Positions 1-3,918 of a DNA stretch of 3,918 bases are shown in pieces (position 1 is the first letter of the stretch; every line of letters begins with the position of its first letter). The DNA is from a virus. Lineage: Duplodnaviria; Heunggongvirae; Uroviricota; Caudoviricetes. The position numbers and the translations under genes are program-made. The stretch is taken from positions 1 to 3,918 of the IMG/VR virus record IMGVR_UViG_2636415416_000003; one strand, 5' to 3'. A model generated the notes under the pieces. That model ran no database searches and was not told where the DNA came from. It saw only the letters and a program-made list of their open reading frames with translations.

Positions 1-361
1 CGGAGGTGATGTCCCTTGCTTCATTCAGCAGGCTCTGGCGCTGTTTTTCTGCCAGCCGCAAATAATCAACAGGAACAGGAAGAACTTCGCCGTTTTTATA
101 ATACCAGCAGGCTTCAATGCCAAAGCCTTCCGGCAGTTCATCCACTTCCACAATGGTAAAACCAACGGGATAAAGACGGGATACGTCTTCCGCCATCGAA
201 TAAATCACGCCGGTTTCAGGATGCGTGCACAGCTTGTATTTCTTCGTGAATTTATCCAGGGATTCATAAAAGTCCTGCCCGTCTTCACTGCGGAAATACT
301 GAATGCCTTCACCATAAGGCATACCTTCAGGGTAATAACGCGTAACATTTCTGAGTTCCAT
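1..361 (-). CDS. Tail fiber assembly protein (Tfa/gpU-like), N-terminal ~120 aa; 3' end lies beyond the window start
   Basis: Seen: ATG at 361..359 on the minus strand, open frame to position 1 with no stop (my own translation: MELRNVTRYYPEGMPYGEGIQYFRSEDGQDFYESLDKFTKKYKLCTHPETGVIYSMAEDVSRLYPVGFTIVEVDELPEGFGIEACWYYKNGEVLPVPVDYLRLAEKQRQSLLNEARDITS...). Strong SD AAGGAG at 368..373 (minus), 6 nt before the ATG and 14 nt after the tail fiber stop. Established knowledge: position directly after a tail fiber gene and the motif layout (PxGF-hydrophobic-VEV, then W..NG.., then a Q/E/K-rich helix) match tail fiber assembly chaperones of Mu, lambda and e14-type phages. Not listed in the ORF track because it is truncated by the edge. 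Confidence 0.72.
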   Translation of the reverse strand, partial: MELRNVTRYYPEGMPYGEGIQYFRSEDGQDFYESLDKFTKKYKLCTHPETGVIYSMAEDVSRLYPVGFTIVEVDELPEGFGIEACWYYKNGEVLPVPVDYLRLAEKQRQSLLNEARDITS

Positions 362-375
362 TATTTTCTCCTTAA

Positions 376-1473
376 TTAACCGGATACAGAGCGCCATGCG
401 CCATTGATATAAATCTGAGCCTGTTTGTAATACACACCACCGATATTGTCTGCTGTATTTTTTCCCGTATCCTGAACATAAATGCCTGACAACTGGCAGC
501 CAGAAGGTGCGCGAAACCTCCAGGTAATTGTGGTACTGCCCGGGTTGTAAAACACCTCATTGGTGTACTGGAAATTACGCACAGCGCCGGGCTCGGTGGT
601 GTTGATGGTGATATCGCGGGTGCCATCAAACAGCACATTGTTAATCCTGCGGGCAGTCTGGAGTCTGGTTGCTGAGACCGCATTACCGTTTGCGGGGAGT
701 GCCCCCACGTCCGATGCTGTTGGTTTGTTTCTGGTATTGTACTCACGTCGCCATCCGGGAGAGTAGGCGTCTCCGTGGTTGATGTAGGTGAACTGTGAGC
801 TTGTCGTGCCGTTCGTGGCCGTTGTTGGTGTGGTCACCCTGATGGTCATGGCTGATTTGACGCCCATTACCTCAACAACTGCACCGGCCAACTGAATATT
901 GCCGCAGCCGGTATCGGTGATGATTTTATTGCCCGCATAAGCCCAGGAGCCTTTGCACATCCAGTAAGAATGGTTAAATGCTCCCTGTGAATCCAGCCAG
1001 TCAATAAACTGCGCCGTCGTCCAGGCTCCACTGTCGCCACCAATACTTACAGAACCACTGAAAGCACGGCCTGCTCCGATGTCTTTAACAAAATCGCTGG
1101 CGCTGTTTTTTCCGAGAATACCGCGAACAAAAGCACTGAGCGGCGTTAATGCCATTGTGTCTTTGCCGGTAAAATAAGGGAATGTATTATTCTGACCGGT
1201 TAATCCGGCAATAGCTCCGGCTGAACCACTGTTCGTAATAAACAGTTTTTTCAGCGCTGTCATAATCTGGTCGGTTGTGTTTTTATCCGGTTTGATATTT
1301 GCCTGCCGGAGTATTTCCAGTAATTCAGACTGAATAATATTAAACCAGTCCGGCCCCGGATACGTGGGCGGAATACCGTTCCCGCCTTCGGTGAAATAAA
1401 GCGTTGTTTTGCTTAATTCAGCCGCGACAGGTGGCATTACCGGCACACCCGTCGGGTTATCCACATAAAACAT
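376..1473 (-). CDS. Phage tail fiber protein (P2 gpH / Mu S family), 365 aa
   Basis: Seen: 365-aa ORF in the track; SD GGAG at 1482..1485 (minus), 8 nt before the ATG at 1473..1471. Translation begins MFYVDNPTGVPVMPPV and has a PGPDWFNIIQSELLEIL N-terminal region, an internal FPYFTGKD motif and a C-terminal YINGAW. From memory, P2 gpH contains RFPYFTGND and ends with YINGTW-containing sequence, and Mu S has a similar N-terminus. Established: gene order J-I-fiber-Tfa. Confidence 0.85.
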   Translation of the reverse strand: MFYVDNPTGVPVMPPVAAELSKTTLYFTEGGNGIPPTYPGPDWFNIIQSELLEILRQANIKPDKNTTDQIMTALKKLFITNSGSAGAIAGLTGQNNTFPYFTGKDTMALTPLSAFVRGILGKNSASDFVKDIGAGRAFSGSVSIGGDSGAWTTAQFIDWLDSQGAFNHSYWMCKGSWAYAGNKIITDTGCGNIQLAGAVVEVMGVKSAMTIRVTTPTTATNGTTSSQFTYINHGDAYSPGWRREYNTRNKPTASDVGALPANGNAVSATRLQTARRINNVLFDGTRDITINTTEPGAVRNFQYTNEVFYNPGSTTITWRFRAPSGCQLSGIYVQDTGKNTADNIGGVYYKQAQIYINGAWRSVSG

Positions 1474-1476
1474 AAA

Positions 1477-2061
1477 TTATTCTCCGGTGTAATAATATTC
1501 ATATTCCGTGCCCGCCAGCCGGTAATGCTTCAGCAGGCATTCCAGCTCACGGGTGCGTTCGCTGATTAATGGTGTCATGACGCCATCAATACAGGTAAAC
1601 CGCCCGGCATCTTTACCCGGGACGTTCACTTTCAGCATCCAGCGATACCGCGCCGGATGCAGCGGATACATGCAGTCGCGCAGACAGTGGTGCGGCAGAA
1701 CGGCTGTCACCTTAATGGTGAAGCCCAGCGCCGCTGCTGCGGCTTCAGTCTGCCAGGTTGCCAGCCCGCCCCTGCGACGGTATTTCTCCACCACGGCACG
1801 GCGGCGGGCTTCCCTGGTGGTGGGGGCAATTCCGCATTCCGGCAGCGCCAGATACTGCTCCCACTCCGGCAGCAGCCGGAGCGTGGTTTCCGGTCGCATC
1901 TCCACATGCAGACGCGAGGCGTCGTATTCAGTGCGGTTTAAACGTTCTGCAAGCGCCCTTAAAAAGCGGTTTAAATCCGCGTCGTTATCACGCGGCCATG
2001 CCTTACCCCGTGGCATGACCTGTTGCAGTGCGGCCAGCCATTCCGTCACGCTGTGAGCCAT
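1477..2061 (-). CDS. ymfQ: Phage tail protein I-like (DUF2313; Mu gp48 / E. coli e14 YmfQ family), 194 aa
   Basis: Seen: 194-aa ORF; ATG at 2061..2059 preceded by GGAGG (2066..2070, minus); start overlaps the 3' end of the J-like gene by 16 nt; stop TAA lies 3 nt before the tail fiber ATG. Translation (MAHSVTEWLAALQQVMPRGKAWPRD ... LLPEWEQYLALPECG ... RRRGGLATWQ) matches what I recall of the DUF2313 family and of e14 YmfQ, which is also 194 aa. The symbol is given by family resemblance and is from memory; the gene need not be the K-12 orthologue. Confidence 0.85.
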   Translation of the reverse strand: MAHSVTEWLAALQQVMPRGKAWPRDNDADLNRFLRALAERLNRTEYDASRLHVEMRPETTLRLLPEWEQYLALPECGIAPTTREARRRAVVEKYRRRGGLATWQTEAAAAALGFTIKVTAVLPHHCLRDCMYPLHPARYRWMLKVNVPGKDAGRFTCIDGVMTPLISERTRELECLLKHYRLAGTEYEYYYTGE

Positions 2062-3122
2062 GTCACCTCCCCGATGGTGATAAGCTCATCCACATCACTG
2101 GTGGTGTCCTCCCCGATGTTAAGGAAGTAATCCGTGATGCCGGACGTCATACCGATGGCCGTGCGCAGCGAGGACACCGGCAGCGTCTGACCGGGTGCCA
2201 GTGTCTTCTGTAACGCGGTCAGGTTTGCCCGGACGGCGCTCCTGTTCGCCAGGCTGTCCGGTGTCAGACGGATGGATATGCTGACTTTCTTCAGCCTGAC
2301 CTGTACCGGCCAGACCTCAATGCCGCCCGGTTTACCCACCATCACGCCCGTGGCCGGGTGTTTGTGGCAGAACAGATACTGCTCCATTGTCTTCAGGTCT
2401 TCGCGGGTTGGCACGATGTTTTCCCGGTCATCATAAAGCCATGCCAGCCCGACCGTGCCGGGGCCGTGCCATGCATCCCACGCCCACGCGCGGCTGACGC
2501 CCGGCACTTCACGCGCCCATATCACGTAGTCATGCAACGCGCCGCCTGTCGGTGGATTGCGGCGCACATACAGCAGACGGTCCAGCAGCGCTGCGATGGA
2601 TTCAGTGTCTGCGCCACCGGTGATGCCACCTTCAGCCACCGCGCCTGTGCTGGCCGTTCCGGGCAGCGGGGACAGCAGGGTGAGTACGGCACCGGCAGCA
2701 AGATTGCCCTCCACACCGGCTTCTTCAGCCTGCACGATGACGGTGACCTCGCCGTCCTGCACCTCGCCGGACGTGAGTACCTGATACACCTGGTTCGTGT
2801 CGGACTGCATCCGGGTTTCTGCCGGAAGGGGGGACTGACTGGTGAAGGTCACCCGCCCGCTGGCAAAGGTGGCCTGCTTGCGGATAACGCCTTCATACTT
2901 TGCTGTTTTGATAATGGTTTCATCATCAGACGTGGTGGACGGGATTATCTGGTCCTTAATCCAGCTCTGATGGTCGTATAAATCCCGGACCTGACTGCTG
3001 AATGACACGTTCAGCGCCTGCTCAACACTGACAGGCGGCAGCTTTTGCAGGCCGAGTTCATACGCAATATCTTTTTCGCCGTCGGCAATCAGTTTGCCCA
3101 GCGTGGGGATTTCATACGGCAT
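2046..3122 (-). CDS. Baseplate assembly protein J-like (Mu gp47 / P2 gpJ family), 358 aa, apparently intact
   Basis: Seen: 358-aa ORF; ATG at 3122..3120 with SD GGGAGG at 3132..3137 (minus), 9 nt upstream. Translation contains glycine/alanine-rich segments (AEGGITGGADTESIAALLDRLLYVRRNPPTGGALHDYVIWAREVPGVSRAWAW) typical of baseplate J proteins. Established: it sits immediately upstream of the gpI-like gene, as in Mu (gp47-gp48-S-U) and e14 (jayE-ymfQ-stfP-tfaP). Confidence 0.85.
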   Translation of the reverse strand: MPYEIPTLGKLIADGEKDIAYELGLQKLPPVSVEQALNVSFSSQVRDLYDHQSWIKDQIIPSTTSDDETIIKTAKYEGVIRKQATFASGRVTFTSQSPLPAETRMQSDTNQVYQVLTSGEVQDGEVTVIVQAEEAGVEGNLAAGAVLTLLSPLPGTASTGAVAEGGITGGADTESIAALLDRLLYVRRNPPTGGALHDYVIWAREVPGVSRAWAWDAWHGPGTVGLAWLYDDRENIVPTREDLKTMEQYLFCHKHPATGVMVGKPGGIEVWPVQVRLKKVSISIRLTPDSLANRSAVRANLTALQKTLAPGQTLPVSSLRTAIGMTSGITDYFLNIGEDTTSDVDELITIGEVTWLTA

Positions 3123-3184
3123 TAATGGTGGCCTCCCATCGACGGGTGATTTCGATTCTGAGTGTGGTTTTGTCCGGGCGGGTT

Positions 3185-3532
3185 ATGCAAACAGCAACCA
3201 AACCATCAAACAAGGCCTCAAAAGCTAATGAGTTAATGAAAATAATGGATTCTCTAAGCGAACAAGAAAAAGAGATCGTGATCCATACGCTCAAACGAAA
3301 AGGTGTTGAAAAGTTGCTCGAATTTTGCAGCCAAGAAAACCAAGAGTTGATTAGTTTAACGGGTATTCGAAGATTAGCTGCTTTAAGCCTAAATAACCTG
3401 TCAGAACAAAAGGTTAGAGAGATTTTGGCGGGAAATGAAGCTGAGGCCGATCTCATCCAACTAACCAACAAGGCAGTTAGCATAGCTGTGCTTAACTTAC
3501 TTGGTCCATTTCTACAACTTCTGATAAGCTAG
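3185..3532 (+). CDS. Hypothetical small protein in AT-rich segment (115 aa from ATG 3185; 98 aa if the in-frame ATG at 3236 is used); no family recognised
   Basis: Seen: the plus-strand ORF 3125..3532 in the track; its first 20 codons lie in GC-rich sequence overlapping the J start on the other strand, so I place the start at the first ATG inside the AT-rich block (3185) or at 3236. Both have only weak SD-like sequences. Translation is K/E/Q/L-rich with a hydrophobic C-terminal stretch (AVSIAVLNLLGPFLQLLIS) and uses AT-rich codons (aga, cga, tta, cta, ata). The overlapping minus-strand ORF 3112..3483 is S/F/L-rich and looks like an antisense shadow. Coding status is inferred from composition only. 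Confidence 0.45.
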   Translation: MQTATKPSNKASKANELMKIMDSLSEQEKEIVIHTLKRKGVEKLLEFCSQENQELISLTGIRRLAALSLNNLSEQKVREILAGNEAEADLIQLTNKAVSIAVLNLLGPFLQLLIS

Positions 3533-3571
3533 TTTTAAAAGCCTTTAAAAGGTCAAAATAAACAAGACGCT

Positions 3572-3736
3572 TTATCTTGAATGTTTTATTGTTCTGAACA
3601 AACTAAACGGCCCTTGCCCATTTTATCTTGAATACAACTAGTAGCTAAGTTATTGAATCCAATCAAATCCCGTCTTTTTTAATCTCTTCCCGGTTATCTT
3701 GAATAAATTACCTAGTCATAGTCACTTAATCTTGAT
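3572..3736. repeat. Array of short direct repeats: exact 11-bp TTATCTTGAAT three times plus one degenerate copy
   Basis: Seen directly: TTATCTTGAAT at 3572..3582, 3623..3633 and 3694..3704 (the first two share 12 bp, TTTATCTTGAAT), and a variant TTAATCTTGAT at 3726..3736 sharing the ATCTTGA core. Start-to-start spacings are 51, 71 and about 32-33 bp, close to whole numbers of helical turns. All copies are in the same orientation, in AT-rich non-coding DNA downstream of the small ORF. Confidence 0.6.
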
Positions 3737-3820
3737 GTCGCGTTACTGGATATTAATGATGTTGGGGGGCTGGCTGATTTTGTGGTGGAGTGGATGCAAA
3801 ATCAGGACGGATAAGCAAGA

Positions 3821-3858
3821 GTAGGCTGGATCAGACGCAGCCAGCGTCGCATCCGACC
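3821..3858. repeat. REP-like (repetitive extragenic palindromic) element
   Basis: Seen: GTAGGCTGGATCAGACGCAGCCAGCGTCGCATCCGACC. Its reverse complement (GGTCGGATGCGACGCTGGCTGCGTCTGATCCAGCCTAC) closely resembles the enterobacterial REP consensus GCCTGATGCGACGCTGGCGCGTCTTATCAGGCCTAC, recalled from memory. The preceding CAGGACGGATAAG (3803..3815) may be a partial second unit. Confidence 0.6.
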
Positions 3859-3872
3859 TTTTTCTGCACCAG

Positions 3873-3903
3873 CGCAAAAAGGCCCAGTCTTCCGACCGGG
3901 CCT
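3873..3903 (-). terminator. Rho-independent terminator for a minus-strand transcript entering from the right
   Basis: Seen: on the minus strand GGCCCGGTC-GGAA-GACTGGGCC followed by TTTTTGCG, a 9-bp GC-rich stem (one G.U pair) with a GNRA-type tetraloop and a U5 tract. On the plus strand the stem is followed by the weaker T-rich TTCTGCTTAATTT, so some bidirectional activity is possible. Confidence 0.6.
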
Positions 3904-3918
3904 TCTGCTTAATTTGAT

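Follow-up and report, generated by a model that had tools for sequence, protein, structure and literature searches.

A 3,918-nt stretch of DNA from a Caudoviricetes record (IMGVR_UViG_2636415416_000003, positions 1 to 3,918; hereafter the window) carries three exact copies of TTATCTTGAAT, which are very probably the left-end binding sites L1, L2 and L3 of a Mu-type (MuA-family DDE) transposase. They are best read as putative transposase-binding sites because related elements carry three such sites at each end, in inverted orientation, and because the motif co-varies with one segment of the transposase. By alignment with related elements and with uninterrupted host genes, the window is a dead Mu-like transposable prophage with an internal deletion of ~27.6 kb, inserted in Escherichia coli mobB. 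The array is most likely a feature of a familiar kind, in a phage lineage that has been little described, and this reading replaces an unexplained array with a precise annotation: an element that ends at 3720, an interrupted mobB and the remains of a dead Mu-like prophage.

Element boundary and gene content of the remnant

The sequence shared by 14 left ends (the window and 13 others, made up of an alignment of seven ends plus seven more from Shigella, E. coli and IMG/VR contigs) stops at ...CCTAGTCATA, that is, at window position 3720, with unrelated host genes beyond. On the host side, window 3725-3918 comprises the 3′ end of mobB and the spacer before a 5S rRNA gene, and is present in 5426/5426 complete E. 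coli genomes. The four intervening bases, GTCA at 3721-3724, differ from the GCCG of K-12-like hosts. When the empty site is rebuilt with GTCA, 307 E. coli genomes match it at 100% identity over 64 nt, which makes GTCA a natural mobB allele. This empty-site comparison, which the first-pass annotation had put forward as a way of placing an att core, thus locates the end of the element at 3720 and the start of mobB at 3721, as judged by sequence identity on both sides. Two other placements were rejected. A terminus at 3724, which would give a Mu-like ...CA end and has megablast host matches from 3725, fails because GTCA belongs to mobB; a tandem duplication of TAGTCA, or retained old flanking DNA, fails as the source of GTCA on the 307-genome match. 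Carried by 307/5426 complete genomes, GTCA is a minority allele, with Ser in place of the Pro encoded by the common GCCG. The insertion cuts mobB 94 nt ahead of its stop codon, leaving a plus-strand 3′ fragment at 3721-3814. Further into the host DNA are a REP-like palindromic unit (~3820-3870) and, between mobB and the adjacent 5S rRNA gene, a GC-rich hairpin (3879-3889 with 3894-3904), which is probably a terminator for mobB, the rRNA operon or both. The first-pass annotation was right to place the array between phage genes on one side and host DNA with REP sequences on the other.

At 93% identity, window 3188-3720 matches the left-hand tip of an E. coli RM9088 prophage; this tip follows the gene for a 168-aa ‘DNA-binding protein’ and abuts nrfA. 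Adjoining it on the opposite strand are genes for a small HTH protein, a ‘Mu transposase C-terminal domain’ protein, an AAA ATPase and Gam. Remoter copies of the last 100-180 bp form the edges of similar prophages in yhfX, fliH and narI and beside cusS. The insertion sites of related elements (nrfA, yhfX, fliH, narI, a vgr gene and mobB) are unrelated to each other, and at least ten different flanks occur among these elements, with short target duplications. No complete E. coli genome covered ≥80% of window 3100-3918, and other insertions of related elements were all that turned up when species-representative genomes and viral contigs were scanned. Searched against the phage collection, the left-end DNA gave no match; the nearest phages were reached through the transposase protein.

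Intact relatives establish the type of element. The relative in STEC346 is an intact 35-kb prophage with the gene order c, ner, A, B, gam, mor, lysis, head, tail, baseplate (gp46, gp47, gp48), fibre, com and mom, and the VL40 relative has the same order. The STEC346 transposase (695 aa; WP_235411750.1) matches Pfam HTH_Tnp_Mu_1 and Mu-transpos_C, its B protein is a MuB-like ATPase matching Phage-MuB_C, and its Ner matches HTH_35. A MuA-family DDE transposase and a MuB-type ATPase are therefore both encoded in this intact relative, and both genes are deleted from the window. The relatives also encode Gam, Mor, Com and Mom, in Mu gene order.

The window retains two blocks of such an element, which meet at the internal deletion junction (3185-3188). 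The first block, on the minus strand, contains a tail fibre gene (376-1473), of which the N-terminal part is kept in relatives and the remainder is divergent; a Mu gp48-like (YmfQ family) gene (1477-2061; Pfam Phage_Mu_Gp48, E = 3.4e-30); a Baseplate J/Mu gp47-like gene (2046-3122; Pfam Baseplate_J, E = 8.7e-60); and the last 74 nt of a gp46-like baseplate gene (3112-3185; 99% identity to the VL40 prophage). Across window 1083-3185, which takes in the 74-nt end of gp46, then gp47, gp48 and the beginning of the fibre gene, identity to VL40 is 99%. Window 1-1083, covering the distal tail fibre and a fibre assembly gene, has 69-87% identity or no match to VL40, a divergence consistent with exchange of a host-range cassette. 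The second block holds a truncated repressor (c) gene on the plus strand (3185-3532), 94% identical to residues 70-168 of the RM9088 homologue, followed by the left end (attL) of the prophage. This non-coding end (3533-3720) reads outside-in from 3720 on the minus strand, is matched by the 13 other left ends and can be aligned with Mu attL.

The repressor gene has kept its 3′ two-thirds and lost residues 1-69, and with them about half of the Mu-type DNA-binding domain; the full-length RM9088 homologue matches HTH_Tnp_Mu_1 and the truncated window ORF has no Pfam match. The ~27.6 kb lost comprises the 5′ part of c, the operator/enhancer, ner, A, B, early genes, and head and tail genes up to gp46. 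With the transposase, B protein and enhancer gone and the repressor truncated, the prophage is dead, and its end sites would now be relics that could be used only in trans, by the transposase of a related phage together with a surviving right end. The deletion joins repressor codon 70 to the last 74 nt of gp46 with no obvious microhomology at 3185-3188, and the fused reading frame begins with an ATG created at the junction. The truncated repressor ORF is 15 codons longer than its RM9088 counterpart owing to a ~10-bp length difference near the 3′ end (window 3480-3532 versus RM9088 locus L001, 6290-6300).

Six-site inverted layout of the repeats

The three exact copies of TTATCTTGAAT lie on the plus strand at 3572-3582, 3623-3633 and 3694-3704, in the single orientation described by the first-pass annotation. 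Its judgement that the array is improbable by chance also held: among 200 dinucleotide-preserving shuffles of the window, none gave even one exact copy. A repeat-finding run recovered the same family, with start-to-start spacings of 51 and 71 bp. These correspond to 4.86 and 6.76 helical turns, with offsets of ~50 and ~85 degrees; relatives have L2 and L3 51 or 52 bp apart, with spacings of 22 and 35 bp at the opposite end of the element. The same-face, helically phased spacing claimed earlier is not borne out. The degenerate fourth copy also falls away. The sequence at 3726-3736, TAATCTTGATG, matches the motif at 8/11 bases, and with three mismatches it is absent from a search allowing two or fewer. 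It is a chance resemblance within the coding sequence of the mobB fragment, in a stretch found in 5426/5426 complete E. coli genomes with or without a prophage. An Rfam scan of the window gave no matches.

Read outside-in from the terminus on the minus strand, the core is ATTCAAGATAA. The predicted L1 (3694-3704) occupies bases 17-27 from the terminus, is invariant in all left ends and stands in the same register as R1 of the relatives; L2 (3623-3633) occupies bases 88-98 and L3 (3572-3582) bases 139-149. All three sites thus fall within ~200 bp of a transposable-phage terminus, their cores spanning bases 17-149. The motif search in related prophages proposed with the first annotation gave a simple result. 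At one mismatch or fewer, two intact prophages (43 kb of sequence for STEC346 and 41.5 kb for VL40) each contain six copies, three per end on opposite strands. For STEC346, six copies compare with a chance expectation of 0.53, and 0/100 shuffles reached six. The cores, ATTCAAGATAR from the terminus inward, occupy bases 17-27, 88-98 and 139-150 at the left ends of relatives and 17-27, 39-49 and 74-84 at the right. STEC346 and VL40 therefore have the inverted partner sites (3 + 3) with equidistant outermost cores, and every element examined has its outermost core at bases 17-27, counted from either terminus. The right end of the window's own element lies beyond the window and would be expected to read ...ATTTTGCGCGCTTTA.

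Conservation follows the sites. Left ends with only 75-80% identity elsewhere all have the three cores unchanged, the reverse of an array lost while its flanks persist, which the first-pass annotation had named as a refuting outcome. Comparable motif density elsewhere, its other such case, was likewise not seen: only two stray matches with up to one mismatch occur outside element ends in ~200 kb of related and host DNA. The L1-L2 spacer (3634-3693) is highly conserved and Mu-like in its L1-proximal part (AACCGGGA.GA ... CGGGAT.TGAT.GGAT) and possibly holds a site for a host bending protein, by analogy with HU in Mu. The same spacer contains TTATTGAAT at 3650-3658, which resembles the core minus two bases and is kept among relatives; it may be a degenerate extra site or belong to a bending-protein site.

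By analogy with Mu, we infer that transposase monomers would bind the six sites, three per end and inverted between ends, through the region of the protein that matches the position of the MuA end-binding domains. The transposase would then pair both ends and cut at the termini, which lie 16 bp beyond the L1 and R1 cores, and the cut ends would be joined to staggered positions in the target. An identical register of L1 and R1 is what a transposase requires for placing its active site at both termini.

Covariation with the transposase and alternative readings

Comparison of relatives suggests which protein reads the motif. Operator-like sites for the repressor of the adjacent small gene, or another regulatory array, would suit repeats lying just downstream of a repressor gene remnant, but this reading is very unlikely. 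The repressor is of the HTH_Tnp_Mu_1 type in RM9088 and of an unrelated, CI-like HTH_3 type in STEC346, yet motif and layout are the same in both, so a repressor is disfavoured as the reader; moreover, the motif is missing from the c-ner intergenic region of intact relatives, where Mu-type operators lie. It is the transposase that changes with the motif. Identities were calculated in 40-residue alignment bins with the STEC346 transposase as reference (L010, 2060-4147); the other genes compared were those of VL40 (L013, 1960-4056), RM9088 (L001, 3251-5335), vB_YpM_5 (L029, 5930-8023), L009 (39876-41981) and L020 (3-1727). Transposases of elements with ATTCAAGATAA ends are 66-92% identical to the reference in columns 41-80 and 92-100% in both columns 81-200 and columns 201-600. 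In vB_YpM_5 and an O157 prophage, whose ends carry GTATCAAA, the transposases are only 35-70% identical to it in columns 41-200, versus mostly 85-100% in columns 201-600, where a single 40-residue bin falls to 72%. Residues up to ~40 instead follow the repressor/immunity type. In these alignments, the motif co-varies with transposase residues ~41-200 and not with the repressor type or the N-terminal domain that follows it. From their position and the known organisation of MuA, we take residues ~41-200 to be where the end-binding domains of MuA lie. Against MuA, BLASTP aligns the transposase at 24% identity over the catalytic/C-terminal part and 28% over the N-terminal domain but detects no similarity in the end-binding region, and the Pfam Mu end-binding domain model was not reported in the transposase at E ≤ 0.001. 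The transposases appear modular, with residues ~1-40 going with immunity type, ~41-200 with the end motif (AAGATAA versus GTATCAAA) and the rest mostly 85-100% identical.

The reading favoured in the first-pass annotation, arm-type sites of a tyrosine integrase beside an att core, draws on the direct repeats and on their position at an element boundary. The boundary role for sites bound by the element's own recombinase stands, as the array occupies the last 150 bp of the prophage; the integrase and att core do not, and we regard them as extremely improbable. The search for an integrase, Rep or ParB gene near the array found none in the window or its relatives, and the elements encode MuA-like and MuB-like proteins. 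Their insertion sites are many and unrelated, each with its own 4-bp duplication and with no common core, and the motif recurs inverted at the other end at an equal distance from the terminus. The lack of Rep and ParB genes in the window and relatives also tells against replication-origin iterons or a partition centromere, which direct repeats in AT-rich DNA might otherwise suggest. Repeats at both termini of an integrated transposable phage, inverted between ends, count against both, and Mu-type phages replicate by transposition (PMC8705779); iterons or a centromere have scarcely any probability, and these options, like operators, found no support. Low GC content in the array region (33-38%) is the one point in favour of a compositional artefact of AT-rich DNA, but the absence of any exact copy from 200 shuffles, the two strays in ~200 kb and the invariance of the cores in diverged relatives make the probability of chance practically negligible. 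Transposase end-binding sites accordingly remain our preferred reading of the array. We note as a caution that arrays at AT-rich prophage edges need not indicate integrases or origins.

Termini, target duplications and comparison with known systems

Elements of this clade end in TA on both sides, with 5′-TATGAC... at the left and ...GCGCTTTA-3′ at the right. A 4-bp direct repeat flanks the element at 5/5 complete junction pairs (ATTC, CAGG, TAAG, TTCA and TATA), and the uninterrupted alleles of yhfX and fliH confirm two of these duplications. TG-CA termini or a 5-bp duplication were considered and rejected, as no boundary placement giving either fits these two verified empty sites. The evidence for termini and duplications lies at window 3719-3724, STEC346 (L010) 846-851 and 36086-36095, loci L014-L018, and vB_YpM_5 (L029) 4640-4745. 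In the window, the terminal dinucleotide of the element is the TA at 3719-3720, where Mu has CA, and the plus-strand host bases GTCA at 3721-3724 would be one copy of the 4-bp target duplication expected from the 5/5 relatives, with its partner beyond the window.

In Mu, three MuA sites stand at each end with unequal spacing, MuA monomers occupy L1-L3 and R1-R3, and HU bends the L1-L2 spacer (PMC3145075). The elements described here resemble Mu in having three sites per end, inverted between ends, with L1 near the terminus, a spacer before L2 and L3, and closely packed right-end sites (R1 and R2 are 22 bp apart). The gene order c, ner, A, B ... com, mom is that of Mu, and the left end can be aligned with Mu attL, the L1-L2 spacer included. 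The sites themselves differ. The core is ATTCAAGATAR here, whereas the Mu consensus, checked by eye against the Mu sequence, is TGNTTCAYTNNAARYRCGAAAR. The repeats do not match the 22-bp MuA consensus, and they are therefore not Mu or D108 sites; they would be sites of the same kind with a different specificity. The L1-L2 and L2-L3 distances are 71 and 51 bp, versus ~105 and ~40 bp in Mu, and R3 is direct here and inverted in Mu. The present elements have TA-TA termini where Mu has TG-CA, and they duplicate 4 bp of target instead of the 5 bp of Mu or the 6 bp of B3.

Among phages, the Yersinia vB_YpM_5/6 transposase is 85% identical, and Mu-like inserts in Stx-phage records are at ~74%. Both vB_YpM_5 and the O157 prophage (strain F8492, in ypdA) have three direct repeats per end, with the core GTATCAAA instead of AAGATAA and with transposase columns 41-200 correspondingly divergent. 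vB_YpM_5 shares the right-end terminal sequence ...TTTTGCGCGCTTTA and the TA termini, and its core is in the same register. The paper describing the vB_YpM_5/6 phages does not discuss genome ends or duplications. Up to 2021, every Mu-like and B3-like phage described was said to have conserved TG-CA ends, except for a TA-TA group in Leptospira, and the paper that first reported TA-TA ends left open whether such elements occur in other bacteria (PMC8705779). The Leptospira transposable prophages have a MuA-like transposase and TA at both termini, as here; in contrast, they are B3-related with 6-bp duplications (PMC8705779), whereas the present clade is Mu-type (c/ner/A/B/mom), has 4-bp duplications and belongs to Enterobacteriaceae. 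In the part of the literature accessible to us, we found no description of TA-TA ends with 4-bp duplications in this clade.

On balance, we favour a broader reading in which these elements form an enterobacterial true Mu-type clade, spanning E. coli and Shigella prophages and the plaque-forming vB_YpM_5/6, whose transposase would cut after TA, with a 4-bp stagger in the E. coli prophages, and whose end-recognition module (residues ~41-200 plus an 8-11-bp core) would have been swapped between close relatives. If true, the clade would offer a natural system for studying how MuA-family transposases set terminal-dinucleotide choice, stagger length and end specificity. Close Mu-type transposases with two end motifs are convenient for studying how MuA-family enzymes recognise ends and choose cleavage sites, and the two-motif set could possibly be used for orthogonal mini-Mu tools.

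The ‘circular’ vB_YpM_5 record joins its right and left ends through ~83 bp (4652-4734) foreign to either end; this is presumably host DNA packaged with the genome, in which case the circularity is an assembly artefact. In STEC388, two halves of a related prophage, each beside one half of fliH, lie ~0.9 Mb apart (2.85 Mb versus 1.94 Mb). The left half runs as far as an IS66-family element, where it stops, and borders on an e14-like prophage, a configuration suggestive of a large IS-mediated rearrangement.
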